Origin: Eubacteriales bacterium
GTDB lineage: Bacteria > Bacillota > Clostridia > Oscillospirales > CAG-272
Direction of reading: 5' to 3'
Length of the DNA: 64,000 bases
NCBI GenBank assembly: GCA_045643885.1
Contig: JAZRFY010000027.1
Location: forward strand, 8,230-72,229
Position numbers and translations under genes: made by a program. Shown here piece after piece: positions 10,832 through 30,204 of the stretch (position 1 is the first letter of the stretch; each line of letters starts with the position of its first letter). Below the pieces are notes generated by a model, which saw nothing but the letters and a program-made list of their open reading frames with translations, was not told the DNA's origin and did no database searches.

Positions 10832-11929
10832 TTATTCTTTCTCTGTTTTTTTGTGGGAATTAAGCACCTTCACGTTATCTCTGTGATGGATTTTGATCGT
10901 TTGCTCATCCTTGTCACCTATTCTCACCTTAAGCATACCGGAAAGGGGATGACTTTCGATTACCACGCCGATTCCGTCGGGAGTTTTAACTGTTGAATCA
11001 ACCGAGGGAGTGCGCGCGATCTCGTATTCATAGGTATCCTGCTCATATCTTAAGCAACACATAAGTCTGCCACAAGTACCTGAAATCTTTGAGGAGTTTA
11101 AGAAGAGTCCCTGTTCCTTTGCCATCTTGATAGATACCTGAGCAAAGTCGGAAAGGAAGGTTGCGCAACAAAGGGGACGTCCACAAGCACCAAGACCGCC
11201 AATAAGCTTGGCCTCGTCGCGAATACCTATCTGTCTTAACTCGATTCTCGTTCTGAAAACGGATGCAAGATCCTTAACAAGCTCTCTGAAGTCAACTCTG
11301 CCTGCAGATGTGAAGTAGAAGAGAAGCTTGCTGTTGTCAAAGGTGTACTGAGCATCCACAAGCTTCATGTCAAGCTCGTGCTTTGCGATCTGCTCAAGGC
11401 AAATGCCGAATGCTTCTTTTTCCTTCTTTGTGTTTTCTTCGTTCTTAATAACGTCCTCGGGGGTTGCAATGCGAATAACTGAACGAAGAGGAGGAACGGT
11501 CTCGGACACTCCGACAAATTTATTGGGAGTGAAAACCTCACCGAATTCAGGTCCTCTTGCCGTGTCAACGATGGCAAAATCACCCTTTTGTGCAGTAACA
11601 CCCTCGGGAGCAAAGTAATAAACCTTGCCAACCTTTTTAAAGCGAACGCCGATAACCTCGACCTGCTCCTCATCCTCCTTGGAGTCCGTAGTGGGCTTTG
11701 CTTCATCAAAAGCCTCCTCCGGGAACATATCCTCAAGGAATTCAAGGCTTTCTTCTTCGTTTAAAGGCATATCCTTATCTGTCACAGTCTCTTCAAGCTC
11801 TTCAGCGGAAAGCTCCTCTGCAAGCTCAACGGCTTTGTTTTCCTTTTTGGGCTTGTGCTTGTTGAAGCGACGGTGATGTCTTTTTTTATTGTGATTTTTT
11901 TGCTGATTGTTTTGATTATTATTTTCCAT
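10832..11929 (-). CDS. yaaT: PSP1-domain protein (YaaT/RicT-like) with a charged low-complexity N-terminal extension
   Basis: PSP1 core (GVRFKKVGKVYYF...CCATFL...GTCGRLMCCLRYE). Conserved yaaT position downstream of holB. I preferred the ATG at 11929 (GGAGA 6 nt upstream) over 11941. Confidence 0.8.
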   Translation of the reverse strand: MENNNQNNQQKNHNKKRHHRRFNKHKPKKENKAVELAEELSAEELEETVTDKDMPLNEEESLEFLEDMFPEEAFDEAKPTTDSKEDEEQVEVIGVRFKKVGKVYYFAPEGVTAQKGDFAIVDTARGPEFGEVFTPNKFVGVSETVPPLRSVIRIATPEDVIKNEENTKKEKEAFGICLEQIAKHELDMKLVDAQYTFDNSKLLFYFTSAGRVDFRELVKDLASVFRTRIELRQIGIRDEAKLIGGLGACGRPLCCATFLSDFAQVSIKMAKEQGLFLNSSKISGTCGRLMCCLRYEQDTYEYEIARTPSVDSTVKTPDGIGVVIESHPLSGMLKVRIGDKDEQTIKIHHRDNVKVLNSHKKTEKE

Positions 11930-11941
11930 ATTGATCTCCAT

Positions 11942-12979
11942 TTATATTAAACCACTGAGAAAATTTGCTACAGTCAATTTCACGTTTGCATTTCTCAAAA
12001 GAGAGAGTCTTGCTTGCTCTGCGCTTTTCATTATGTCAGAAATCTTTTGCATAGAGAAGCTGTAAGAAAGCTCTTCAGCATATTTTACGTCGGTGAAGAA
12101 TACCATTTTCGGCTCGTCAGCTTTCTTGATCACCATCAGGTCGCGAAGGGCACATTGGATTTCCGAAAGCATGGAAACGACCTTTTCTCTCTCGTCCTTT
12201 TTTTGAGAAAACATAGCGCTTATCTCGGCAAAATCCGAGGAAAGAGAGTGATTTGCAAGTGACTCGATAAATCTTTGCACCACCTCACGGTTTTGAAGAA
12301 TATGCTTTCTTTCACTTGAATCGATAAGCTCAAGGATTCTACCGATACTGCCACCCGACGCCATATAGATCTGCTCAAATTCTTCGGGGGAATTATTGAT
12401 AAAAATACGCGCCGAGGAATCGTTTTCTTTGATATATGAAATCGCCTCCTCCTTGTCGGGAGTTCTCATTCTGAGAATGGGAGCACGGCTTTTTATGGTT
12501 TCAAGTATCGTTTCAGTATTCTCGCAAAGAAGGATGAAAACCGCATATGAGGGAGGCTCTTCAAGAGTAAGAAGAAACGCATTTTGCGCCTGAACGGTCA
12601 TGGTGTGAGCATCCTCGATTATATAGACCTTGAAATCACCGTCGTTGGGGTAATAAACAACGTCCTCCTTGATGAATCGGATGGGATCGACACCGAGCGT
12701 AGCTCTGTCATCTTCCTTTGAAATGTAAATCACGTCAGCAGAATTATTTTGCAAAATTTTTCTGCACGAATTACACTCGCAGCAAGGGAGAGGAAGGGAA
12801 TCGTTGCCCTTTGCCTCACAGTTTAACGACGCTGCAACAAGACGCGCAAGCGTGTGCTTTCCAATGCCCTTAGCACCCAAAAGAATGAATGCGTGGGGAA
12901 GTATATTTTTTCTTATGGAGGAAGCAAAATATGTGCAGATATCATCGTTTGCAATGATGGATGAAAAGTCTTTTTTCAT
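11942..12979 (-). CDS. holB: DNA polymerase III subunit delta'
   Basis: HAFILLGAKGIGKHTLAR P-loop-like motif, zinc module CCECNSCRK and the SRAP sensor motif (IKSRAPILR). Confidence 0.85.
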   Translation of the reverse strand: MKKDFSSIIANDDICTYFASSIRKNILPHAFILLGAKGIGKHTLARLVAASLNCEAKGNDSLPLPCCECNSCRKILQNNSADVIYISKEDDRATLGVDPIRFIKEDVVYYPNDGDFKVYIIEDAHTMTVQAQNAFLLTLEEPPSYAVFILLCENTETILETIKSRAPILRMRTPDKEEAISYIKENDSSARIFINNSPEEFEQIYMASGGSIGRILELIDSSERKHILQNREVVQRFIESLANHSLSSDFAEISAMFSQKKDEREKVVSMLSEIQCALRDLMVIKKADEPKMVFFTDVKYAEELSYSFSMQKISDIMKSAEQARLSLLRNANVKLTVANFLSGLI

Positions 12980-19533: not shown

Positions 19534-21447
19534 ATGTACAATCAACATCCCGAAAATGCCTCAACGAATAACGTTGAGATCATTAAAGAAAGAAAAGTTG
19601 GTTCGTCATGGGAAAACGCCTCGTATAGCGGGGCGTTTTCTGTAAATGATGACATCCGATTCAGAATAAGTGTTCCAACAAGTATGGGAACACAGGGAAT
19701 AGTGTTGAGAATAAACCGCGACGGTGAAAACTATTGGGATGTTCCTTTGACTCTTTCAAGCTTTGAACTTGGACGCGAGGAATACGTTCTCGAGCTTAAT
19801 CTCCGTCATCTTTGCGGACCTGTTCCCGCACTCTTCTTCTACGAATTTTTGTTCCTCCGTGGAACGAGAACACTTTTTACCGTCAGTGTAAATAACTATG
19901 ACTTTGAGCTTGCATATCACTCCGAGTCAAAATTCTCCTTGCTCGTTTACGAGGATTATTTTGAGGCTAAGGAATGGTTTGGTAAGGGAATTATGTACCA
20001 CGTATTCGTTGATCGCTTTGCAAAGGGTGAAATTGCGCCTTGGCATAGAGATGATTATATCATCAACGAGGATTGGTATAACGGAGTCCCCCAATATGCA
20101 AAAAATCAAGGTGATAGACTCAAAAACAACATGTTCTTTGGAGGAAATCTCAAGGGAATTGAGGATAAGCTCGACTATCTTGAGAGCCTTGGCACAAAGG
20201 TCATCTATTTAAGCCCCATCTTCAAGGCGTATTCAAACCATAAATACGACACGGGTGATTATATGACCGTCGACGAAATGTTTGGCGGTGAGGAAGCGTT
20301 CTGCTCCTTGCTTAACAAGGCTAAGGAGAAGGGAATGAGCATCATTCTTGACGGCGTTTTCAATCATACGGGTGACGATAGCCTTTACTTTAATAAATAC
20401 AGAAAATATGACTCCGTCGGTGCTTGCAACGATCTCAATTCTCCCTATAAGGATTGGTTCAATTTCAAGTGCTATCCCTGTGACTATGATTCTTGGTGGG
20501 GAATAGATATCCTCCCCAAGCTCAATCAAAATAATGAAAGATGCCGTAACTACTTTGTTGGTGAAGGTGGAGTTATTGAAAAGTATACAAGGATGGGTAT
20601 CGGTGGATGGAGACTTGACGTTGCCGACGAGCTTCCCGACGAATTTTTGTATCAGCTTCGCGAGAGCGTTCATAAGAATTCTAACGGTCAGGGCATCGTT
20701 ATCGGTGAGGTCTGGGAAAATGCGGCGGTAAAGAGCGCCTACGGCAAGAGAAGAAACTACTTCCACGGCCGTCAGCTCGATAGCGTTATGAACTATCCCT
20801 TAAGAAACGGGATCATCGATTTCGTTACCTACGGACTTGCTGAAATGCTCTATAATGTTCTTGTTGAGCTTTATTCCTCATATCCAAGATGCGTTTGCGA
20901 TTCTCTTATGAATATACTCGGTACACACGATACTGAAAGAATACTTACAGTGCTTGGCGAAAATTACCGTCCCGATGCTCCCAACGACCATCTCGCAGTT
21001 ATGAGAATGACGGCACAGGAAAGAGACGTAGCTATAAAAAGACTTAAGATGGCAGCCATTCTTCAGTATACTGTTTACGGTATTCCGTCCGTGTTCTACG
21101 GTGACGAGGCCGGAATGGAGGGATATCACGATCCCTTCTGCAGAAGACCTTTCCCGTGGGGACGCGAAAACGAAGAGCTTCTTGCACATTACAGAAAGCT
21201 TGGTGAGCTAAGAGTTATTGAAAAAGCATTTGATAGGGGCTCATTCAGAGTGCTCGATCACGGCAAGGAAACTCTTACGTATGAAAGATGTAAGGAAGAT
21301 TCACGAGTTGTAGTTATTGCCAACGGAGGAGAGAACATCTTCAGAACAAGACTTGACGGAAAATGGATAGATATGCTCACCTATGAGAGCTTTGAAAATT
21401 ACATTTCCGTTCTCCCTAATTCCGCAAGAATCTTAAAGCAAATATAA
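19534..21447 (+). CDS. cytoplasmic GH13 alpha-glycosidase (neopullulanase/maltodextrin glucosidase-like)
   Basis: GH13 regions DGVFNHTG, GGWRLDVADE, GEVWE and LGTHDTER. No signal peptide. Confidence 0.85.
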   Translation: MYNQHPENASTNNVEIIKERKVGSSWENASYSGAFSVNDDIRFRISVPTSMGTQGIVLRINRDGENYWDVPLTLSSFELGREEYVLELNLRHLCGPVPALFFYEFLFLRGTRTLFTVSVNNYDFELAYHSESKFSLLVYEDYFEAKEWFGKGIMYHVFVDRFAKGEIAPWHRDDYIINEDWYNGVPQYAKNQGDRLKNNMFFGGNLKGIEDKLDYLESLGTKVIYLSPIFKAYSNHKYDTGDYMTVDEMFGGEEAFCSLLNKAKEKGMSIILDGVFNHTGDDSLYFNKYRKYDSVGACNDLNSPYKDWFNFKCYPCDYDSWWGIDILPKLNQNNERCRNYFVGEGGVIEKYTRMGIGGWRLDVADELPDEFLYQLRESVHKNSNGQGIVIGEVWENAAVKSAYGKRRNYFHGRQLDSVMNYPLRNGIIDFVTYGLAEMLYNVLVELYSSYPRCVCDSLMNILGTHDTERILTVLGENYRPDAPNDHLAVMRMTAQERDVAIKRLKMAAILQYTVYGIPSVFYGDEAGMEGYHDPFCRRPFPWGRENEELLAHYRKLGELRVIEKAFDRGSFRVLDHGKETLTYERCKEDSRVVVIANGGENIFRTRLDGKWIDMLTYESFENYISVLPNSARILKQI

Positions 21448-21450
21448 AAT

Positions 21451-21486
21451 AAAGGTATCGCTTTTTGCGATACCTTTAAATTTTTT
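21451..21486 (+). terminator. Rho-independent terminator of the glg operon
   Basis: 11-bp stem aaaggtatcgc/gcgataccttt followed by a T-run. Confidence 0.75.
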
Positions 21487-21572
21487 AAATAAAAAACGAA
21501 AAAGTATTGATATATGCTTTTTTTTGTGTTAATATTATCATAGGTAATTATATTTATATATGAAGGATGCTT

Positions 21573-22088
21573 ATGAAAGCCTTGAAAATATTGATATTTT
21601 TCACACTTTTAGCCATTTGTCTTTCAGCCTGTGCCTATTCGGACGGCACCGATAAAAAAGATGGTATTCTTCTTGACGGTGACGTTCTTTCATCCATAAT
21701 CAAGGACGCACAGGATAAAGAAAACTCTCTTACAGCAAACGAGGGTGACGTGTTTTGGACATCGTCGGGAAAGATATGGCATAAAAGCGCAGATTGCTCA
21801 TATCTTTCAAATTCAAAGGAAATCTATCATGGAACAGTTGACGAAGCAATGCTTGAGGGCAAGGAAAGAGCCTGTGACAGATGCTTTGCAACAGAAGAGG
21901 ATAAGATTTATCTTGAGATTGAAAATGAGCCGATAAAGAACGGAGACGTCTTTTTCACAAGGGACGGAGCTTCCTGGCACAGTGACATAAACTGCAGTGC
22001 TATATGTGGAGCAGAAAAGATATATAACGCAAGTCCTGAAAAGGCCTCAGCGCTTGGAAAGGACAATTCTTGCGAATGTAATAAATAA
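21573..22088 (+). CDS. small lipoprotein with two copies of a His/Cys-rich module
   Basis: Lipobox LSAC. The duplicated pattern is GDVF[WF]T..G..WH....C...Y...GK..C..C. Confidence 0.65.
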   Translation: MKALKILIFFTLLAICLSACAYSDGTDKKDGILLDGDVLSSIIKDAQDKENSLTANEGDVFWTSSGKIWHKSADCSYLSNSKEIYHGTVDEAMLEGKERACDRCFATEEDKIYLEIENEPIKNGDVFFTRDGASWHSDINCSAICGAEKIYNASPEKASALGKDNSCECNK

Positions 22089-22119
22089 TTCATCTATGGT
22101 ATTAACCGAAGGAGTATTT

Positions 22120-22623
22120 ATGACGATCAGACTTGCAGAAAAAAAGGATATCGACAGAATTATGCATATTATTTCCGACGCACGCTCAAGCATCGGAAGA
22201 CTTGGCATTGACCAGTGGCAATACGGATATCCCACAAGAGATATAGTTAAAGAAGACGTCGCACTTGAGCGTAGCTTCGTGGTGTGCGACGGTGAAAATA
22301 TCTATGCAACCTTTGCCCTTATGATGAACGGTGAGCCGACGTATAAAAAGATTTACTGTGGCTCATGGCTTGGTGACGGTGAATACCTTGCATTACATAG
22401 AATCGCAATCGATTCAGCACATAGAGGACAGGGCATTGCCGAAGAGATTATTGAATTTCTCAAAAGATTTGCGTCCGAAAACGGATACGTAAGCGTTCGC
22501 GTTGATACACACGAGGGCAATATTCCCATGAGAAAAATGCTCGAAAAGAACGGTTTTGAATACTGTGGCACGATCCATCTTTTAGACGGTCAGTCCAGAG
22601 TGGCATACGAAAAATTGGTATAA
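22120..22623 (+). CDS. GNAT-family N-acetyltransferase
   Basis: ATG after GAAGGAG. Acetyl-CoA motif [13 protein letters not shown] and a C-terminal [13 protein letters not shown] motif. Confidence 0.85.
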
Positions 22624-22630
22624 GGAAATT

Positions 22631-23101
22631 ATGGCAGAAAATAAAAGTAACGTTAAGATAATATCTCAAAATAAAAAGGCGTATCACGACTATTTTATCG
22701 ATGAGAGATACGAGGCAGGCATTGAGCTTTTCGGCACAGAGGTCAAAAGCATTCGTGCAGGCAGAGTAAATTTAAAGGAATCCTATTGCGACATCAAGGA
22801 CGGTGAGGTTTTTGCCGTTGGTATGCACATAAGCCCCTATGAACAGGGCAACGTGTTCAATAAGGATCCCCTTCGTCCCAAAAAGCTCCTCCTTCATAAG
22901 AGGGAGATACTCAAGCTTTTCGGCTTGGTATCACAAAAGGGATACACACTTGTTCCGCTTCAGATATATCTTTCCAATTCGCGTGTAAAAATGGAGATAG
23001 GACTTTGCCGAGGCAAAAAGCTCTATGATAAGCGCGAGGATATGGCGCGCAATGATGCAAAGCGCGATATGGAAAGAGCATTCAAATCACACAACGATTA
23101 A
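22631..23101 (+). CDS. smpB: SsrA-binding protein SmpB
   Basis: [10 protein letters not shown]...GTEVKSIR...LLLHKREI. 156 aa. Confidence 0.95.
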
Positions 23102-23116
23102 AATTGGAGAACTGAA

Positions 23117-24610
23117 ATGAACCAAAGCTTCGATAATCAAAGATATATTGAATTACAATCAAAGCACATCAACGATAGGATCGAACAGTTTGGAGGCAAG
23201 CTCTATCTTGAGTTTGGCGGCAAGCTTTTTGACGATTATCACGCATCCCGAGTGCTTCCCGGCTTTATGCCCGACTCCAAGCTCCATATGCTTTTGGCGC
23301 TTAAGGATAAGGCAGAGATTGTCATCGTTGTAAATACCGACGATATCGAGAAAAACAAAATAAGAGGTGACCTTGGAATCACCTATGACCTTGACGTGCT
23401 TCGTCTTATAGACGCGTTCAAAAACGTTGGACTCTATGTTGGAAGCGTTGTGCTTACCCGATTCGAGTCCGTGCACCCTGCAGTTGCCAAATTCGAGCGT
23501 AAGCTTGAAAAATTAGGCATTAAGGTGTACCACCACTATACGATCCCCGGCTATCCCTCCAACGTAGCAAAGATTGTCAGTGATGACGGCTTTGGCAAAA
23601 ACGAATATGTTGAAACTCAAAGAGAGCTTGTTATCGTAACAGGTCCCGGTCCCGGTAGCGGTAAGATGGCTGTGTGCCTCTCCCAGCTCTATAACGATAA
23701 TAAGCAGGGAATTAAGGCAGGATATGCAAAGTTTGAAACCTTCCCCATATGGAATAAGCCCCTCCGTCACCCTGTAAACCTCGCTTATGAGGCTGCAACG
23801 GCTGACCTTAACGACGTAAATATGATTGACCCCTATCACCTTGAAAAATATGGTGAAATGGCAGTAAACTATAATAGAGACGTTGAAATTTTCCCCGTCC
23901 TCGATGCGATATTCAAGGGGATCTACGGTGATAAATCCCCCTATTTCTCACCCACTGATATGGGTGTAAATATGGTCGGAAATTGTATCATCGACGATGA
24001 GGAGGTAATAGACGCGTCAAAGAGAGAGATCGTTCGTAGATATTATGACGCACTTTGTGCCTATAGGGATGATGATACCGAGAGAAATAAGAATTCCGTT
24101 CAAAAGATAGAGCTTCTTATGCAGCAGGCAGGCATCACAAAGAATTATCGTAAGGTAATTGCTGCGGCAAAGGCAAAGAGTGAAGAAACCGGTGTTCCCA
24201 CGGCGGCAATCGAGCTTGCTGACGGACGAATCATCACGGGTAAAGCAACCGACCTTCTTGAAAGCGTTTCTGCAATGCTCCTCAATGCATTGAAGGAGAT
24301 AACAGGCATTCCCGACGAGATACACCTTCTCGCACCCGAGGTAATCGAGCCCGTTCAAAAGCTCAAATGTCAGTATCTTTCAAGAACCTATAAGAAGTTG
24401 AACGTAAATGAGATTCTCATCGCACTTTCAATTTCAGCACATACCTCTGCAACGGCGGCGCACGTGCTTAAGCACCTTCCCAAGCTTGCAGGATGCGATA
24501 TCCACTCAACCGTAATGCTCCCAAGTGCCGACGTCGAGGTCCTCAAAAAGCTCGGACTCAACGTCACCTGCGAGCCCAAATATCAAATCAAAGAAATCTT
24601 CATTGGATGA
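23117..24610 (+). CDS. UPF0371/DUF1846-family protein
   Basis: N-terminus FDNQRYIELQSKHINDRIEQFGGKLYLEFGGKLFDDYHASRVLPGF matches my memory of this conserved Firmicute family. Confidence 0.8.
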   Translation: MNQSFDNQRYIELQSKHINDRIEQFGGKLYLEFGGKLFDDYHASRVLPGFMPDSKLHMLLALKDKAEIVIVVNTDDIEKNKIRGDLGITYDLDVLRLIDAFKNVGLYVGSVVLTRFESVHPAVAKFERKLEKLGIKVYHHYTIPGYPSNVAKIVSDDGFGKNEYVETQRELVIVTGPGPGSGKMAVCLSQLYNDNKQGIKAGYAKFETFPIWNKPLRHPVNLAYEAATADLNDVNMIDPYHLEKYGEMAVNYNRDVEIFPVLDAIFKGIYGDKSPYFSPTDMGVNMVGNCIIDDEEVIDASKREIVRRYYDALCAYRDDDTERNKNSVQKIELLMQQAGITKNYRKVIAAAKAKSEETGVPTAAIELADGRIITGKATDLLESVSAMLLNALKEITGIPDEIHLLAPEVIEPVQKLKCQYLSRTYKKLNVNEILIALSISAHTSATAAHVLKHLPKLAGCDIHSTVMLPSADVEVLKKLGLNVTCEPKYQIKEIFIG

Positions 24611-24620
24611 TATAATAAAA

Positions 24621-24650
24621 GCACTTGCAAATGCAAGTGCTTTTGTTGTT
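24621..24650 (+). terminator. terminator of the DUF1846 gene
   Basis: Inverted repeat gcacttgca/tgcaagtgc followed by TTTTGTTGTT. Confidence 0.65.
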
Positions 24651-24672
24651 TTACTTGTTTTTTCTCGTGAAA

Positions 24673-24713
24673 TCTTCGGTCACCGTTCAAAAACAACACA
24701 CTGTGTTGTTTTT
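24673..24713. repeat. left copy of a 41-nt direct repeat (16-nt box plus terminator-like hairpin)
   Basis: tcttcggtcaccgttc + aaaaacaacaca-c-tgtgttgttttt. It matches 38/41 nt of 27530-27570. On the minus strand it is placed to terminate the islet operon. Confidence 0.8.
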
Positions 24714-24810
24714 ATCCTTGCTTTCCTAGCCCAAAACGAGTAGGCATCTCTCCAAAAAAGCGATTTCCGAGGAGCTGGTCGAGACAAGCTCGGCAGACTT
24801 CGGAAGCATC

Positions 24811-24898
24811 TCGGAAAGTTGGTTGCGATATGGAGACAGTCCTCGAAAAGAAGTTCGGAAACTTGGTTGCGATATGGTAACAATCCTCGGAAATGTTT
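24811..24898. repeat. non-coding tandem repeat, 2 x 44 nt, with a degenerate third unit at 24767-24810
   Basis: Unit 1 is 24811-24854 and unit 2 is 24855-24898. They share TCGGAAA-n-TTGGTTGCGATATGG-nn-ACA-n-TCCTCGrAAA. No plausible ORF covers them. Confidence 0.8.
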
Positions 24899-24923
24899 AG
24901 GATATGTTAACTATTGTTCATTA

Positions 24924-25487
24924 TCAAATGTATTCGATAGGCAAATGACCATAAATAATCTTATATTCTGCGGATTTATAGTATTCTTTTACTTTTTCTT
25001 GATTTTGAGAAATGTAATCATTTGCTCCTGCTATTAAAGCATCTATTAATCCAATTACATTTATGGAAACACTAGTATCACCAACAAAATTTTCTGCCAC
25101 ATTGCATAAATAGGAGTCGCCACAATGAGCAGAACAGTCTGACACACATAAAGAAAATGTATCTATAATACCATTTTTGTTATTACTATTCGATTTCAAA
25201 TCGTTATTTCCAGCATGCAATACAGAACATCTTAAAGCATAGCAATTATTCCCGTCGAATTTGCTATTTTCCATCCCTTTGTTTATTAGTTCATTTTGAG
25301 ATTTAGAAAATTCATAATATGGATATATCCATTTGTTAAACCATTCAACATACTCTTCGCGATGGGTTTTTCTATTATGTTCTATATTACTTAAAATATT
25401 AGGGAGTGTTAACGCCAATGCTAAAGCTGACACATATGCTTTGCTGTTTTTTGCAACTGTGATATCATTGATTATATCTTCTACCAT
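24924..25487 (-). CDS. hypothetical 187-aa protein with an Rx4H motif (possible HEPN-like RNase)
   Basis: AT-rich ORF 7 nt downstream of the zinc-ribbon nuclease gene. Motif YALRCSVLHAGN (R86-x4-H91). Composition suggests a predominantly helical protein. Confidence 0.65.
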   Translation of the reverse strand: MVEDIINDITVAKNSKAYVSALALALTLPNILSNIEHNRKTHREEYVEWFNKWIYPYYEFSKSQNELINKGMENSKFDGNNCYALRCSVLHAGNNDLKSNSNNKNGIIDTFSLCVSDCSAHCGDSYLCNVAENFVGDTSVSINVIGLIDALIAGANDYISQNQEKVKEYYKSAEYKIIYGHLPIEYI

Positions 25488-25494
25488 AGACTAG

Positions 25495-26739
25495 TTATAC
25501 CTTTGCTTTTTTCTTGTTTTTGGCACATATGGGACATCCAGTTCCATTATTTCTATGACTTATGGTTGCCTGCCATTCATGTTTGTTACTACATATCCAC
25601 CATACTTTTTGGCTGCTATTAGGCATAACTTCAGTTGGTAATAATTCATTGTTTTTTTCATAATTCCATTCGTTAGCTAAAATTGGATTAACTGTTTGTA
25701 AATCGTTTTCACCTTTAACTGCATATCTGCCTGAACAATATGGACATCCTCTTCCTTTATTTCGGTTTTTAATCATCGCTTGCCATTCATGTCCTTTATT
25801 ACATTTCCACCAAACCTTTTTGTGACTATTAGGAGTTACATCTTCTGGCATTAAATTTCCGTTCTTTTCATAATTCCATTCATTGGCTAATAGAGGATGA
25901 ATTGTATTTAATTCGTTGTAACCTTTTAATATTTTTTTGTTTGAGCAAATTGGACATCCATAACCATTATTTCTATTAGCGATAGCTGCTTGCCATTCAT
26001 GTCCTTTATTACATTTCCACCAAACTTTTTTATGACTATTAGGAGTTACATCTTCTGGCATTAAATTTCCGTTCTTTTCATAATTCCACTCATTGGCTAA
26101 AGTAGGATTAATTGTATGTAAATCATTATAACCTCTCAATATTTGTTTGCTTGAGCAAATTGGACATCCGCGCCCATTATTTCTATTGTATATTGTTGCT
26201 TTCCACTCGTGACCTTTGTTACACTTCCACCAAGCATTATATCCACTATTGGCGGTAAAGTGATATGGTTTGGATTCTCCGTTTTTTTCATAATTCCATT
26301 CGTTAGCTAAAATTGGATTAATCGTTTGTAAGTCATTATAACCTTTTAATACATTTTTACCTATACAATAAGGACATCCAACCCCACTATTTCGACTGCC
26401 TATTGTAGCTTGCCATTCATGTCCATTACTACATTGCCACCAAACTTTTTGTTTACTATTCGCAGTAAAATTTTCAGGTTTTAAAGTTTGATTTTTTATA
26501 TAATTCCATTCATTTGCCAAAAATGGATTCGTAGTTTGCAAATCATTATAGCCTTTTAATACTTTTTTGTTTGAACAGTATGGACAGCCGTATCCCTTAT
26601 TTCTATTATCTACTGTGGATTGCCACTCGTGACCTTTGCTACATATCCACCATACTCTTTTTCCACTATTAGCTGTTAAATGTTCTGGGATTAAACGACC
26701 GTTTTTTTCGTAATTCCATTCTTTTGCAATTTCAGGATT
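25495..26739 (-). repeat. six tandem 210-nt (70-aa) coding repeats inside the zinc-ribbon gene
   Basis: The WNY motif recurs at residues 221/291/361/431/501/571 of the ORF-track protein. Blocks 25778-25890 and 25988-26100 differ at only 3 positions. Confidence 0.9.
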
Positions 26740-27369
26740 TACAATATACAAAGACCTATCCTTTTCAATGTAATCTCTCAAATTTTCGATTTCTATGGAA
26801 TCTCTTTCAAGATCAATGTCAACATTTTCTCCGATTATTTCTTTTAAAATCATCTGAAGTATTGCCGAAAAGTTTTTTTCTACAACGTAGTCAATAGAAC
26901 TATCGTTTAGGGGGGGCAATTTTTCTCTTATTCGGTACAGTTTAATTCCATCTTTTTGACACTTTCGATTTTTTGCTAAATCCTTTTGCTGTTTATTTTT
27001 ATGCCAAAAATACCCATCATATTCAATTGCAATGTTTTTGGATGGGATATAGATATCTAATTCATAGCCTCTATCATTATATGAATGTATTACATCCAAA
27101 CCATATTTTTGTAGATAATACACAAGTGAATATTCAGGAAGAGAGGTTCTACGTTCAGAATTGCACAATGGACAACCGCTCCCTGTGTGTCGACTATTTA
27201 TTACTGCTTGCCACTCGTGTCTTTTATGACATTTCCACCAAACTTTTTTACCACTACCGCAAGTAAGTTTTGTGGGATCGAATCCAAGTTCATTATTCTT
27301 CTCCCAATCCCATTCTGCCATAAGTTGAGCATTATCGCTCACGTATTTCTTTTCTTTCTTTTCTGCCAT
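25495..27369 (-). CDS. multi-zinc-ribbon (DUF4379-like treble-clef repeats x7) protein with an embedded Vsr/DUF559-like PD-(D/E)xK endonuclease domain
   Basis: Seven repeats of the pattern L(A)xEW(N/D)YEKN...P...NS..KVWW(K/I/Q)C..GHEWQA.I..RN.G.GCP(Y/I/L)C. The nuclease core is YELDIYIPSKNIAIEYDGYFWH...KLYRIRE (26923-27147). Start taken at ATG 27369; an in-frame GTG at 27378 is an alternative. Confidence 0.85.
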   Translation of the reverse strand: MAEKKEKKYVSDNAQLMAEWDWEKNNELGFDPTKLTCGSGKKVWWKCHKRHEWQAVINSRHTGSGCPLCNSERRTSLPEYSLVYYLQKYGLDVIHSYNDRGYELDIYIPSKNIAIEYDGYFWHKNKQQKDLAKNRKCQKDGIKLYRIREKLPPLNDSSIDYVVEKNFSAILQMILKEIIGENVDIDLERDSIEIENLRDYIEKDRSLYIVNPEIAKEWNYEKNGRLIPEHLTANSGKRVWWICSKGHEWQSTVDNRNKGYGCPYCSNKKVLKGYNDLQTTNPFLANEWNYIKNQTLKPENFTANSKQKVWWQCSNGHEWQATIGSRNSGVGCPYCIGKNVLKGYNDLQTINPILANEWNYEKNGESKPYHFTANSGYNAWWKCNKGHEWKATIYNRNNGRGCPICSSKQILRGYNDLHTINPTLANEWNYEKNGNLMPEDVTPNSHKKVWWKCNKGHEWQAAIANRNNGYGCPICSNKKILKGYNELNTIHPLLANEWNYEKNGNLMPEDVTPNSHKKVWWKCNKGHEWQAMIKNRNKGRGCPYCSGRYAVKGENDLQTVNPILANEWNYEKNNELLPTEVMPNSSQKVWWICSNKHEWQATISHRNNGTGCPICAKNKKKAKV

Positions 27370-27407
27370 AATGCTCACTCACTTTCTTGAATTTTGTTTA
27401 TAGATTA

Positions 27408-27436
27408 ATTATATCACGAATTATTAGTGAATGCAA
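27408..27436 (-). promoter_or_regulatory. sigmaA-type promoter of the islet operon (TTGCAT-17-TATAAT)
   Basis: On the minus strand: ttgcat tcactaataattcgtga tataat, with TG at -14/-15 relative to the -10. It lies about 40 nt upstream of the ATG at 27369. Confidence 0.55.
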
Positions 27437-27529
27437 CGAATTTTGCAAATGTTTGGAATTTTAGGGGAATTCGCTCTTGAATTTTGTGAGGCAATGAGCA
27501 AAAGAGGTAAGGTTTATGCCTCGCAAAAT

Positions 27530-27570
27530 TCTTCGGTCACCGTTCAAAAACAGCGCACTGTGCTGTTTTT
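27530..27570. repeat. right copy of the 41-nt direct repeat; probable ssrA terminator
   Basis: tcttcggtcaccgttc + aaaaacagcgca-c-tgtgctgttttt. On the minus strand the hairpin plus T-run lies about 80 nt after the tmRNA CCA end. Confidence 0.8.
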
Positions 27571-27651
27571 TCACTGCGTTCGATTCCCCTCATTTTATGC
27601 AACGAAAAAATAACAAGGGAGCACTCTAAAGAGCACCCCCTTATTATTTTT

Positions 27652-28044
27652 TGGTGGACTCGAGGGGAATCGAACCCCTGTCCGAAAACCTCTTGATATG
27701 ACCTTCTCCGTGGGCAGTCAGTTTTTATTACTTCCCACTAAGAACCGCCAACTGACAGGCAATTCTTAGTCCGTAGCACCTTTGTGCTTGATCGGTTCAG
27801 GTGCGACCACCGATGCAAGTTCACCACTACGATCACGCTCAGTCCGCAGTCGTGGTCCTCTGCGGAGGAACGGGTAGCCCACAGGCTACAGCACCGCCAA
27901 TTGAAGCGCCCTAAGGCGCGTCAATTAGGCAGCCATTGCAACAGTATTGTTGTCGTTTAATTTAAAGTTTGAGCAGTTATCGGGATTACTCAGCCCGCCA
28001 CGCTTATCATACCTCAAAATCCCCGTCGAAACCATTACGAGCCC
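27652..28044 (-). ncRNA. ssrA: transfer-messenger RNA (tmRNA)
   Basis: The minus strand reads 5' GGGCUCGUAAUGGUUUCGACGGGG ... GGGGUUCGAUUCCCCUCGAGUCCACCA 3'. The acceptor stem has a G3:U pair. An internal tag frame ends ...ACU GUU GCA AUG GCU GCC UAA (..TVAMAA*), at 27925-27957. Confidence 0.92.
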
Positions 28045-28058
28045 ATGTATGATGCTAT

Positions 28059-28087
28059 ATTATACACTATTTTCTTTAAATAATCAA
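28059..28087 (-). promoter_or_regulatory. ssrA promoter (TTGATT-17-TATAAT)
   Basis: On the minus strand: ttgatt atttaaagaaaatagtg tataat. The -10 lies 14 nt upstream of the mature 5' end. Confidence 0.55.
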
Positions 28088-28163
28088 TAGATTTTTGACG
28101 AAAACAAATTTTTCTTGCTATTTTTATCAAAATATGTTATTATGAACACAGTGAGGTGAATTT

Positions 28164-28400
28164 ATGTTTTTTGATATATTTAAGAAGAAAGAAAAGAAGA
28201 GTGACTGGCCCGAAAAAGCCATTTACAAGCCGCGCGATTTCGTTCGATTCAGACATCGTGGAGAGCTTCATTTCGGCTTCACTCACGAGGCTCATCTTGA
28301 CGAAGAAGGAAACGTTCTTTACACAATTCAGATGGGTGGGGAATGTCCCACGTTCGTTTATAACTATAAAGAAGAAAATATCGTTGGAAAGGTGAATTGA
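28164..28400 (+). CDS. small hypothetical protein (78 aa)
   Basis: Good ribosome-binding site (GAGGTG, 7-nt spacing). Its stop lies 1 nt before the start of the next gene. No family recognised. Confidence 0.55.
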   Translation: MFFDIFKKKEKKSDWPEKAIYKPRDFVRFRHRGELHFGFTHEAHLDEEGNVLYTIQMGGECPTFVYNYKEENIVGKVN

Positions 28401-28401
28401 T

Positions 28402-30204
28402 ATGAAAAAAATCGTTTTATTAATGCTCGTGCTTGCGCTTGCTTTGTCAACTGTTGCGTGCTTTGATGCAGGTGTAACAAATACTACAAGCAATAAAGCA
28501 ACTAATACAACGTCTACTTCCGTGACCACAAACGGAAATGGTGAAAACCCTCCAAGTGAAGACTTGTTGCCAGATTTCTGCAAATCCGTTGAGGGTTCTA
28601 ATGAGATGATAGCTGTGACACTCGATGATACTTATAATTATGACGTGTATTATAAGAAAACATCGGATGACGATTATTCAAAGCTTGATAATCAGCTTAT
28701 TATTGAAGCAAATGGTGAAACCAAGTGTTATATTCTTGGAATTTCAGCAGGTAAATATGAGGTTAAGATTGATTTCATGGGTAAAGCAACCGAGGATATG
28801 GGTCATTTTGTTGCTCATAATATTTCAGTTTCTGCCCAGGATAGAAGCGGATATGCTCATTTTAACGCGAACGAGGGCGTTGGCGCTTACAATAGCGACG
28901 GCACTGTAAAAGAGGGCGCAAAGATAATCTACGTTACCAACGAAACTAAAAATACTGTTACATGTGAAATTAATGGTGAAACATATACCGGTCTTGTAAA
29001 CATTTTGCAGGCACAGTATAAATCAAGCACACCTATGCTTGTTCGTATCATCGGCAAGATTACAACCAACCAGTGGAATTATAAAAATGTTGAACCCCGC
29101 CTTGCAGATAACTCAAATGCGACAAGTGATTTCTTTGAAAACACCTTCTCAAATGAATACGGTGAAAACCTTGCAAATCTTATAGTTAAGGTAAATTGCA
29201 AGGGTGGAGATCCTAAAACATATAATTACAAGACCACACCCACAGGGCTTACCGATGCAAGAATAACAGGAACAAGCTCATCAACAACTACTTATAAGGG
29301 AAGTGATTTCTCCTCTCTTAAGGGCAAAACAGTATACGATGACGATTCCTATTACAATATGCTCGAGGTAAAGGGCTCAAGCAATATCACTATCGAGGGT
29401 GTTGGCACTGATGCAGAGATTTTCCAATTTGGAATCAGCTTTGAAGAGTGCAACAATATCGAGATAAAGAATCTTACCTTCACAGACTATCCAGAGGATG
29501 CTCTCAACTTCCTTGGTGGTGACAGAAGTGACCTTGGAAGCTTCAACAGATATTGGGTGCATAGCTGTACCTTCAACCGTGGCTATAATGCCTGGGATAT
29601 TTCAGGTGAACGCGATAAGTATGCAGGTGACGGAACAATTGACTTTAATAACGTGTCATACGTAACCGTGGCATATAACAAGTTTGACAACCCCAAAAAG
29701 ACCATGCTCTTTGGCAGCAGTGACTCTCAGGCTTGTATGAATATGACCGTCCATCATAACTATTTCTACAAGGTTGAATCACGCTTGCCCCTTGGCCGTC
29801 ATACAAACGTCCACGCGTATAATAACTACTATGAAGAGTGTGGCAACTGTGCAGACCTCAGAGCAGGCTCATACATCTTTAGTGAGAACAATTATTTCGA
29901 TTCCACGTCCAAGCCCTTCATTCTTTCATCGAGCTATGCAAAGTCCTTTGGTGATATCTTTGTGGACGGTGGAAATCCCAATGCAAATATTGTTTCCTCA
30001 AGAGCTGAAACTGTGACAAGCACCTGCAAGCCCGACGGCTCAACGGATATGTCCAATTTCGATACGAAAGCTTCAGTTTTCTATTACGACAGTACAAACA
30101 AGAAGAGTGACGTTTCACTTATGCTTGATGCCGAGGACGTTCCTGCCTTCGTTAAGGATCATGCAGGCGCAGGTATGTTCAATTTAATTGAAACAGAAGA
30201 GTAA
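28402..30204 (+). CDS. secreted lipoprotein with a PL1-type pectate-lyase-fold domain
   Basis: Lipobox LSTVAC. Motifs WVHSCTF...DGTIDF...VTVAYNKF...KTMLFGSSDS...MTVHHNYF...SRLPLGRHTNVHAYNNYY parallel the PL1 signature (vWiDH / hhN.f / R.P..R / H.yNN.y). Confidence 0.75.
   Translation: MKKIVLLMLVLALALSTVACFDAGVTNTTSNKATNTTSTSVTTNGNGENPPSEDLLPDFCKSVEGSNEMIAVTLDDTYNYDVYYKKTSDDDYSKLDNQLIIEANGETKCYILGISAGKYEVKIDFMGKATEDMGHFVAHNISVSAQDRSGYAHFNANEGVGAYNSDGTVKEGAKIIYVTNETKNTVTCEINGETYTGLVNILQAQYKSSTPMLVRIIGKITTNQWNYKNVEPRLADNSNATSDFFENTFSNEYGENLANLIVKVNCKGGDPKTYNYKTTPTGLTDARITGTSSSTTTYKGSDFSSLKGKTVYDDDSYYNMLEVKGSSNITIEGVGTDAEIFQFGISFEECNNIEIKNLTFTDYPEDALNFLGGDRSDLGSFNRYWVHSCTFNRGYNAWDISGERDKYAGDGTIDFNNVSYVTVAYNKFDNPKKTMLFGSSDSQACMNMTVHHNYFYKVESRLPLGRHTNVHAYNNYYEECGNCADLRAGSYIFSENNYFDSTSKPFILSSSYAKSFGDIFVDGGNPNANIVSSRAETVTSTCKPDGSTDMSNFDTKASVFYYDSTNKKSDVSLMLDAEDVPAFVKDHAGAGMFNLIETEE

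Follow-up and report, generated by a model that had tools for sequence, protein, structure and literature searches.

How did two adjacent genes that lack a recombinase come to lie beside the 3' end of the transfer-messenger RNA (tmRNA) gene ssrA, and what might they do there? The question is raised by an AT-rich block within a 64,000-nt stretch of contig JAZRFY010000027.1 from a member of the Eubacteriales. This whole stretch is herein called the window; coordinates are positions within it, with the strand given in brackets. An initial annotation, made from the letters of the window alone, had read the block as a horizontally acquired two-component defence or toxin module bracketed by direct repeats. 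Comparison with related genomes leads to another architecture: the region 24645–27646 is very probably a tandem array of decayed integrative elements without recombinases, located at the T-loop and 3' end of ssrA, and not a single repeat-bracketed element. Parts of this array are formed by a structured module, which is the item furthest from any known match; the novelty of the locus lies there more than in the two-gene islet.

The ssrA hotspot in related genomes

The block lies between the DUF1846 gene (23117–24610, +) and the 3' end of ssrA (27652–28044, −; tag DNNTVAMAA), an integration hotspot. Its two open reading frames (ORFs), ORF-A (25495–27378, −) and ORF-B (24924–25487, −), are co-oriented with 7 nt between them. 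The G+C fraction is 0.30–0.345 over 24800–27200, as against 0.42–0.49 in the flanking genes and 0.50 in ssrA. The outline of an AT-rich two-gene block, as initially annotated, is confirmed in its ORFs, spacing and composition. The lack of an integrase or transposase was likewise noted correctly: no recombinase ORF is present within 24645–27646, and hence, the islet fits only a recombinase-less class resembling cis-mobilizable elements (CIMEs).

The comparison set consists of 17 loci syntenic with the window from related uncultured ruminant-gut Clostridia, with DUF1846 proteins 88–92% identical; here and below, loci carry L numbers and public proteins P numbers. The segment 24645–27646 has no counterpart in L003 and L001, where the DUF1846 terminator abuts the tmRNA 3' end; by blastn, window positions 20005–24644 and 27647–28448 are directly adjoining in L003. 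Between the DUF1846 stop codon and the tmRNA 3' end lie 39 nt in L003, 56 nt in L001, 249 nt in L004, 457–617 nt in three further loci, 2.4–4.6 kb in five further loci and >10 kb in L006. At least 10 relatives carry unrelated cargo at the same spot, different in each genome. L002 carries HsdM and HsdS, L010 a GIY-YIG protein, L013 a DUF2971 protein (11493–12446) with a DnaJ-domain membrane protein, L014 a DEDDh exonuclease bearing NUMOD modules, L011 an alcohol dehydrogenase with a 23S-IVS protein, L008 and L016 large surface proteins, and L006 and L007 islands in which large serine recombinases occur together with a DUF927 primase. Relatives of ORF-A or ORF-B were not found by tblastn in 80 DUF1846-linked loci. 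These data support horizontal acquisition of the block as cargo at the 3' end of ssrA; on this point the initial annotation is borne out by the empty sites of L003 and L001 and by the exchangeable cargo. With regard to the empty site with a single repeat copy that it had proposed to look for, gene-less relatives keep the right repeat beside the tmRNA as part of a module, and L003 and L001 are without the insert altogether. In these uncultured ruminant-gut Clostridia, ssrA is a hypervariable hotspot at which nuclease and defence genes gather.

A prophage was considered and rejected, since no phage structural genes lie nearby and the flanks are smpB, the DUF1846 gene and a pectate-lyase-like gene. 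smpB (22631–23101) and the DUF1846 gene, both facing ssrA, lie directly upstream of it and converge on it, a synteny kept across the L001–L017 clade; the left chromosomal flank ends in the DUF1846-gene terminator hairpin (24612–24649, +).

Direct repeats as module cores

The block had been described as bracketed by 41-nt direct repeats. A repeat pair is present, at 24670–24713 and 27527–27570 (44 nt, 91% identity), and two exact occurrences of its 22-mer TCTTCGGTCACCGTTCAAAAAC in the window stand against none expected and none in shuffles. The repeats are, however, 44–52 nt long, and a role as insertion bracket does not hold. The right repeat is contained in an approximately 190-nt segment (27462–27651) that abuts the tmRNA 3' end. 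This segment is found in the same place, with 87–92% identity, in L002, L004, L008 (two in tandem), L010, L013 and L015, all of which are without ORF-A and ORF-B; L006 has it as well, far from any detected tmRNA. L004 corresponds exactly to the empty site with a single segment of this kind added, on either side of which stands TGGTGGACTCGAGGGGAAT, a 19-nt copy of the tmRNA 3' end; this is the signature of T-loop integration.

The two repeat copies differ in an informative manner. Three of the four mismatches fall into the stem of one hairpin, as a compensatory pair and a G-T wobble; hence, the copies are diverged paralogues and not a fresh duplication. The left copy carries the hairpin variant CAACACA/TGTGTTG, which is that of the second L008 segment (L008b), and the right copy the variant CAGCGCAC/GTGCTG of L004 and L015. 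Moreover, the left repeat belongs to a truncated module, in which half of hairpin 1, the invariant CTTCGGTCACCGTTCAAAAAC and hairpin 2 are retained. A covariance model built from 16 modules recovers the right copy as a full module core, element E1 (27451–27601, +; 160 bits), the left copy as a truncated second module, element E3 (24629–24745, +; 54 bits, E=5e-13), as well as modules in 11 related loci and, in addition, two in L084. It is well supported that the repeats are the cores of the modules E1 and E3 and not scars of the insertion of the islet.

A structured module at tRNA and tmRNA genes

The module, present in the window and in L004, L008, L084 and L100–L111, spans approximately 150 nt and consists of two covarying hairpins and the invariant 21-mer, which contains the palindrome CGGTnACCG. 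In E1, the parts follow each other in the order of a degenerate antisense copy of the tmRNA 3' end (27452–27473), hairpin 1, the 21-mer, hairpin 2, TCACTGC and an inverted 14-nt copy (27578–27591, +). The latter perfectly matches the T-loop and T-stem of the tmRNA (27662–27675) in inverse orientation and lies 70 nt from the tmRNA 3' end. Herein, the module is not confined to ssrA. A 20-mer scan of metagenome contigs returned 12 contigs, with the motif 91–93 nt from the 3' ends of tRNA-Ser(tga), tRNA-Ser(gga) and tRNA-Trp genes, beside tRNA-3'-end-like sequence that has no ARAGORN tRNA call in L101, L105 and L107, and in arrays near tRNA-Arg genes. The layout, antisense to the tRNA, is the same throughout: an antisense copy of the tRNA 3' end, hairpin 1, CTTCGGTCACCGTTCAAAAAC, hairpin 2 with a T-run, TCACTGC and the 14-nt copy in opposite orientation. 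This 14-nt copy comprises the T-loop, the 3' strand of the T-stem and two further nucleotides of the same tRNA, and it agrees with the local tRNA in every module examined. Beyond it follow approximately 60 nt that include a terminator, and then the real tRNA end. In the window, a terminator hairpin lies 3' of the tmRNA (27602–27655, −); it is common to the module-bearing relatives.

The fold is well reflected in the alignment. RNAalifold gives 37 pairs, 17 of them with compensatory changes, and 97.3% of the alignment cells at paired positions can pair, compared with 84.5% in column shuffles and 36–50% when partners are slid. Covariation in hairpins 1 and 2 does not depend on the target, whereas that in the outer helix arises from its two strands both being copies of the local tRNA. 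Over 24000–28600, Rfam yields no family other than tmRNA at E≤1, and a weak tmRNA_permuted match at 27578–27679 is caused by the inverted T-arm copy. The 20-mer is absent from IMG/VR viral contigs, no integrase or recombinase was found near solo modules in the metagenome contigs, and G-U counts do not single out a functional strand. T-loop integration accounts for the direct target copy of the module, and neither for the inverted copy nor for the invariant 21-mer.

Two other interpretations of the module were rejected. An analogy to the bridge RNAs of IS110 elements fails since the target-matched segments copy the same segment both ways instead of the left and right flanks, and no DEDD transposase is present; a small RNA with its own promoter fails since neither strand has a conserved −10 box upstream. 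As a separate observation, a second small repeat, GTCATTCTGGAGCGCAGCGATAGAATCTCGTGGCGA..., is nested in the modules of L006 (11530–11900) and recurs in other hotspot inserts, in the gap regions of L010 and L013.

Parallel islets and the tandem array

A locus of another lineage, L084 (tmRNA tag DNNQVALAA), provides the closest parallel. In tmRNA sense, the tmRNA and its terminator are followed by a module and a full tmRNA-3' copy, then by a promoter region, the Mrr_cat gene and an ORF-B homologue, and finally by a boundary, a terminator and a second module. The Mrr_cat nuclease has 433 aa and is separated by 54 nt from the ORF-B homologue (56% identity), and the boundary ends in GGGTCGGGTCCACCA, a partial tmRNA-3' copy. 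L084 repeats the architecture of the window, an Mrr nuclease taking the place of ORF-A. The ORF-B homologue of L081, the closest one (68% identity), is the end cargo of an element with DUF927 and a large serine recombinase, and this element is collinear with the ssrA island of L006 (38–48% protein identity over four genes). The boundary that precedes the partial tmRNA copy in L084 also follows the ORF-B homologue of L081, and it resembles the second boundary type of L002, L006, L009, L013 and L015.

On account of these parallels to L084 and to L081 and L006, the window is read as three elements, E1, E2 and E3. In tmRNA sense, the proposed array would run from the tmRNA over E1, a 190-nt solo module, E2 and the truncated module E3 to the DUF1846 terminator. 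E2 would be a 2.7-kb cargo unit of promoter, ORF-A, ORF-B and boundary remnants, presumably the stripped, CIME-like cargo end of an ssrA-targeting element of the L006/L081 type with DUF927 primase and large serine recombinase. Related full elements with large serine recombinases are those of L006, L081 and L093.

The signals around the genes can be placed in this frame. Two 44-nt tandem units 3' of ORF-B (24804–24891, +; 82% identity by repeat comparison, under the threshold of Tandem Repeats Finder) had been seen initially and are present as such. They share CCATATC...CTTTCCGAGA with the attachment-site (att)-proximal boundary of ssrA-integrating serine-recombinase elements (L002, L006, L081 and L084), a similarity that is suggestive only. 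The hairpin reported as a terminator after ORF-B exists; it is the repeat hairpin itself and not a separate terminator. A promoter-like site of the ORF-A/ORF-B operon, TTGCAT-17-TGaTATAAT, is read directly at 27408–27436 (−). From 27436 to 27408, TTGCAT is followed after 17 nt by TGATATAAT, with a perfect extended −10 box and a −35 box that agrees with the consensus at 3/6 positions, for which reason it is not listed by a consensus scan; of the consensus promoter initially annotated, the site thus stands and the consensus −35 box does not. Altogether, four points of the initial annotation are corrected: the −35 box of the promoter, the length of the repeats, the status of their copies as paralogues and the identity of the terminator.

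ORF-A, a predicted zinc-finger nuclease with a Vsr-like fold

ORF-A consists of one DUF4379 finger, a Vsr/EDxHD-like endonuclease domain (aa ~75–160) and six further DUF4379 fingers. Its mechanical start is GTG 27378 (627 aa). The true start is probably ATG 27369 (MAEKK..., 624 aa), which is favoured because the public protein P0176 (624 aa) and homologues begin there, with the conserved start MAE(K/D). Pfam identifies seven DUF4379 treble-clef zinc fingers (E=1e-146), and the C-H-C-C sets of zinc ligands are intact in 7/7 of them. Matches to the nuclease domain stay under the cut-off in Pfam (MTES_1575 REase, E=1.6e-5) and NCBIfam (Vsr, E=0.008); the PHROG families 559 (E=5e-60), 681 (E=3e-48) and 3339 (E=2e-15), all annotated as endonuclease or homing endonuclease, also match. 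An AlphaFold 2 (AF2) model of residues 60–205 has a predicted local distance difference test (pLDDT) score of 86. In Foldseek, its best matches are E. coli Vsr (1vsr) and I-Bth0305I (3r3p, root mean square deviation 3.1), each with probability 1.0, followed by NGO0050 (3hrl). The residues E106, D108, E119, D121 and H126 are near-invariant across 31 homologues. These results support the prediction of ORF-A as a sequence-reading DNA endonuclease with a Vsr/EDxHD catalytic fold related to PD-(D/E)xK, and the zinc-binding repeats and PD-(D/E)xK core recognized initially are recovered by Pfam, AF2 and Foldseek as seven DUF4379 fingers and a Vsr-related core.

The family comprises >8,000 proteins, in which the nuclease domain is placed after one to ~six fingers, and free-standing versions of the DUF4379 nuclease with ~190 aa are encoded by phages of Listeria (P100-like), Campylobacter and Klebsiella. 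Proteins that combine an EDxHD/Vsr domain with DUF4379/CapR-like fingers have been described as a large unrecognised outgroup of homing endonucleases (PMC12350094). ORF-A is not a homing endonuclease in the strict sense: it is free-standing between the module and ORF-B, and its homologues lie between housekeeping genes. Rfam gives no intron signal at the locus, and there is no intein context and no recognisable homing site. The only match in PADLOC-DB v2 is a spurious zinc-finger match to a DruE segment (E=3e-6).

Two of three sampled bacterial ORF-A homologues follow a tRNA-Ser or tRNA-Leu gene in the same direction, ~340 nt downstream of it (L094, 4445–5001; L098, 4580–5001), and no module core is present at either of them. 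This suggests that tRNA 3' regions may be a general landing zone of the ORF-A nuclease family. A 240-aa gene that follows the homologue in L094 was considered as a relative of ORF-B and rejected, since hhalign shows it not to be ORF-B-like. Separately, the adjacent fingers of repeats 5 and 6 of ORF-A (25700–26150) contain the identical 37-aa stretch ANEWNYEKNGNLMPEDVTPNSHKKVWWKCNKGHEWQA, which suggests a recent duplication or conversion.

ORF-B, an HEPN-like protein of an unannotated family

ORF-B is a protein of 187 aa that matches PHROG 18591, whose function is not annotated (E=1e-19). A profile search yields 1,951 cluster representatives (50% identity) at E≤1e-3. The Rx4H motif recognized initially, RCSVLH, is upheld: R86 and H91 are invariant in 22 close homologues and in 51 diverse members (22–41% identity). 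In the diverse members, L26, P29, Y46, W49 and Y83 are invariant as well, and some read RNxxxH; the residue following the arginine is Cys in the close family. In the AF2 model of ORF-B (pLDDT 83, predicted TM score 0.81), residues 79–90 form a helix, H91 opens a long loop, and helices lie on either side. The motif of HEPN proteins sits at the end of a helix entering a loop (PMC3710099), and the Rx4H motif of the modelled ORF-B is found at this position. Two phage proteins in BFVD match the model well (E=3e-9 and 3e-6). The domain is also found as tandem copies and in fusions, either with other Rx4H-bearing segments or with DUF2971 (P0089); one fusion-partner domain, the N terminus of P0048, weakly matches HEPN pEK499_p136 (E=0.005). 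A DUF2971 protein at the ssrA hotspot of L013 and the DUF2971/ORF-B-type fusion P0089 together hint at a functional link.

Four independent type I restriction-modification (R-M) operons hold an ORF-B-family gene. It lies between hsdS and hsdR in L112–116, L117–119 and L149, and it follows hsdM-hsdS at a contig end in L172. The R-M operon of L112 is followed by a Pycsar-like cyclase and PycTM, and that of L117 by OLD-TOPRIM and UvrD (Gabija-like) genes on an integrase island; the R-M operon of L149 also has an inserted DUF4238 gene. A further member follows the Mrr nuclease of L084.

ORF-B does not belong to the class of HEPN-MNT toxin–antitoxin pairs, since no MNT gene is found in the islet or in the sampled contexts of ORF-B homologues, nor to the PrrC/RloC class of anticodon nucleases, since it has only 187 aa and no ATPase domain. 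As stated initially, no named system is recognised, and PADLOC gives no defence-system match.

Proposed function and alternative explanations

The best explanation overall, with about an even chance of being correct, is a decayed ssrA array that carries a small defence cassette. The part of it that has ORF-A and ORF-B acting jointly in defence is conceivable, at somewhat less than even chances. In such a cassette, ORF-A would cut incoming DNA, and ORF-B would be a latent metal-independent RNase with R86 and H91 at a dimer interface. ORF-B would then serve as a second-line abortive-infection effector once the DNA nuclease has been countered, in the manner of PrrC within the type I R-M locus EcoprrI. 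Should the cassette act in phage defence, the defence catalogue would gain an unannotated HEPN-like family of ~1,950 clusters that has no Pfam model, and this family would be linked to a zinc-finger Vsr nuclease class now viewed only as selfish endonucleases.

Several findings weigh against this explanation. With respect to the array, tmRNA-3' boundary copies are clear in L004, L008, L015 and L084, whereas in the window the copy at the E1/E2 boundary (27452–27473) is degenerate (~15/22) and the copy beyond ORF-B barely recognisable; because of this degeneracy, the borders of E1, E2 and E3 are taken from L084 and L004. With respect to the cassette, the pairing of ORF-A and ORF-B was met only once. 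The three sampled bacterial homologues of ORF-A are solitary insertions between housekeeping genes, and ORF-A could be a purely selfish homing endonuclease. ORF-B has no match in Pfam, NCBIfam or PADLOC; none of 51 scanned members has a Pfam match to the domain, and none of 120 listed relatives has a precomputed Pfam domain. Profile searches of PDB sequences with ORF-B returned nothing. In Foldseek against the PDB, the sole recurrent matches of ORF-B are the HEPN proteins AbiV (9bj7, 9bj5 and 9bj6) and AF_0298 (2hsb), and these are weak (E 0.9–4, TM score 0.3–0.45). ORF-B is herein called HEPN-like, an assignment that is not statistically secured; the structure modelling and Foldseek comparison proposed initially for both proteins thus succeeded for ORF-A, with Vsr and I-Bth0305I, and gave only weak HEPN matches for ORF-B. 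Outside R-M loci, ORF-B homologues follow secreted trypsin-like proteases, membrane proteins, lipoproteins or nothing recognisable, and their neighbours share no domain, two trypsin-like proteins apart. Integrases, repressors and lysis genes surround the family members of 27 representative IMG/VR loci, as is classic for generic accessory positions. The two-component module of the initial annotation is, thus, weakly supported: solitary ORF-A homologues and mixed ORF-B neighbours speak against it, and the position of the ORF-B family beside R-M and Mrr nucleases speaks for it.

The same observations feed the main alternative, which is unlikely, though to be taken seriously, and in which two unrelated selfish or solo genes landed in one hotspot. 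ORF-A would be a free-standing EDxHD/Vsr homing endonuclease, spreading by cutting endonuclease-less alleles near conserved tRNA and tmRNA genes, and ORF-B a single-gene HEPN toxin or abortive-infection protein. The solitary ORF-A homologues, of which 2/3 sampled lie downstream of a tRNA gene, the free-standing phage versions, the description of the class as homing endonucleases and the lack of a fixed partner of ORF-B homologues agree with it. It leaves aside that both genes are 7 nt apart behind one promoter, that a parallel arrangement of nuclease and ORF-B exists at ssrA in L084, that the ORF-B family recurs within R-M operons and that intron, intein and homing-site context is missing. An addiction or stabilisation module of toxin–antitoxin type, retaining the array or a former mobile element with ORF-B as HEPN toxin, is improbable. 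HEPN domains are common toxins (PMC3710099), and ORF-B homologues do occur at the ends of integrative elements and prophages; however, neither MNT nor another recognisable antitoxin gene is present, ORF-A as a 624-aa nuclease is not antitoxin-like, and many members of the ORF-B family reside within R-M operons without being paired with a small partner.

Two further alternatives concern the islet as a whole. That a single acquired two-gene element duplicated a 41–44-nt target beside ssrA is very improbable, even though two 44-nt copies bracket the genes, the G+C content is low and relatives have empty sites. The right copy occupies the same place at 87–92% identity in relatives without the genes, in other genomes, tRNA-Ser and tRNA-Trp genes are flanked by the same module, which is also located close to tRNA-Arg genes, and the two copies bear different hairpin variants, the left that of L008b and the right that of L004 and L015. 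The left copy, moreover, is a truncated module and not a duplicated target, and a 44-nt target-site duplication was rejected on these grounds. That the islet is an inert remnant with genes no longer functional is the most improbable of all. It would suit the degenerate att copies, the truncated module, the missing recombinase and the occurrence of the exact ORF-A and ORF-B proteins in one contig of the collection only, yet both ORFs are intact, with seven CHCC sets, the acidic and His residues of the nuclease and R86/H91 kept, and the extended −10 promoter is good.

Beyond the decayed array with its cassette, a bolder combination of two ideas may be put forward, which is distinctly unlikely to hold in full. 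The module would be a previously undescribed, structure-dependent attachment element targeting the T-loops of tRNAs and tmRNA, and ORF-B would stand for a new clade of HEPN proteins whose role is to guard DNA-restriction nucleases of several types (type I R-M, Mrr and Vsr-zinc-finger). The two inversely oriented, target-matched segments of the module would pair to form a target mimic, in folded single-stranded DNA or in RNA, and an enzyme acting in trans would capture and stack recombinase-less cassettes, as with integron attC or CTX-phage attP. If the module is an attachment element, it could explain the buildup of small cargo units at tRNA and tmRNA genes, and this is directly testable.

Comparison with known systems

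The closest known counterpart of the array is found in Dehalococcoides, where ssrA islands arranged in tandem, inserted at the T-loop and having a 20-bp ssrA repeat and a CcrB-like serine recombinase, have been described, and recombinase-less members are read as CIMEs (PMC3146451; PMC5704250). Both systems share tandem low-GC islands downstream of ssrA, copies of the ssrA 3' end at the boundaries and the T-loop as insertion point. Likewise, related full elements (L006, L081 and L093) carry large serine recombinases, and some members are without an integration module. Unlike in Dehalococcoides, the window has very small units (190 nt and 2.7 kb), interleaved with a structured module that is also present at ordinary tRNA genes and has an extra inverted, target-matched T-arm copy, and the att copies around the cargo are degenerate.

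ORF-A resembles the EDxHD/Vsr homing endonucleases such as I-Bth0305I (PDB 3R3P) and their DUF4379/CapR-like outgroup (PMC12350094) in its predicted Vsr-like fold, its conserved acidic and His residues, its arrays of ~60-aa DNA-binding zinc-finger modules and its homologues in lytic phages. It differs in being free-standing in the chromosome and in the location of its nuclease domain near the N terminus, after one finger and before six.

HEPN RNases embedded in R-M loci are known from PrrC in EcoprrI and from the ApeA, EC042_2821 and pEK499_p136 families (PMC3710099). With these and with AbiV, ORF-B has in common the Rx4H motif at a helix end, the small alpha-rich protein, the position of family members between hsdS and hsdR and the contexts of prophages and defence islands, and AbiV and AF_0298 are its best, albeit weak, structural matches. 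In contrast to them, ORF-B matches no HEPN profile of Pfam, NCBIfam or PADLOC, contains a β-sheet insert (aa 110–143) between the motif helix and the last helices and, in the close family, has a Cys following the arginine. From PrrC and RloC it is set apart by lacking an ABC-ATPase domain, so that only the R-M-embedded position of family members is shared.

For the module, integron attC sites and the folded single-stranded attP of CTX phage offer an analogy only. As in these, structure is kept more than sequence outside the 21-mer, the two inverse target copies could pair into a mimic of a duplex target, and promoter-bearing cargo lies beside the module without a recombinase. The module differs from them in that there is no integron integrase or attI, and in that its targets are the T-loops of tRNA and tmRNA genes.

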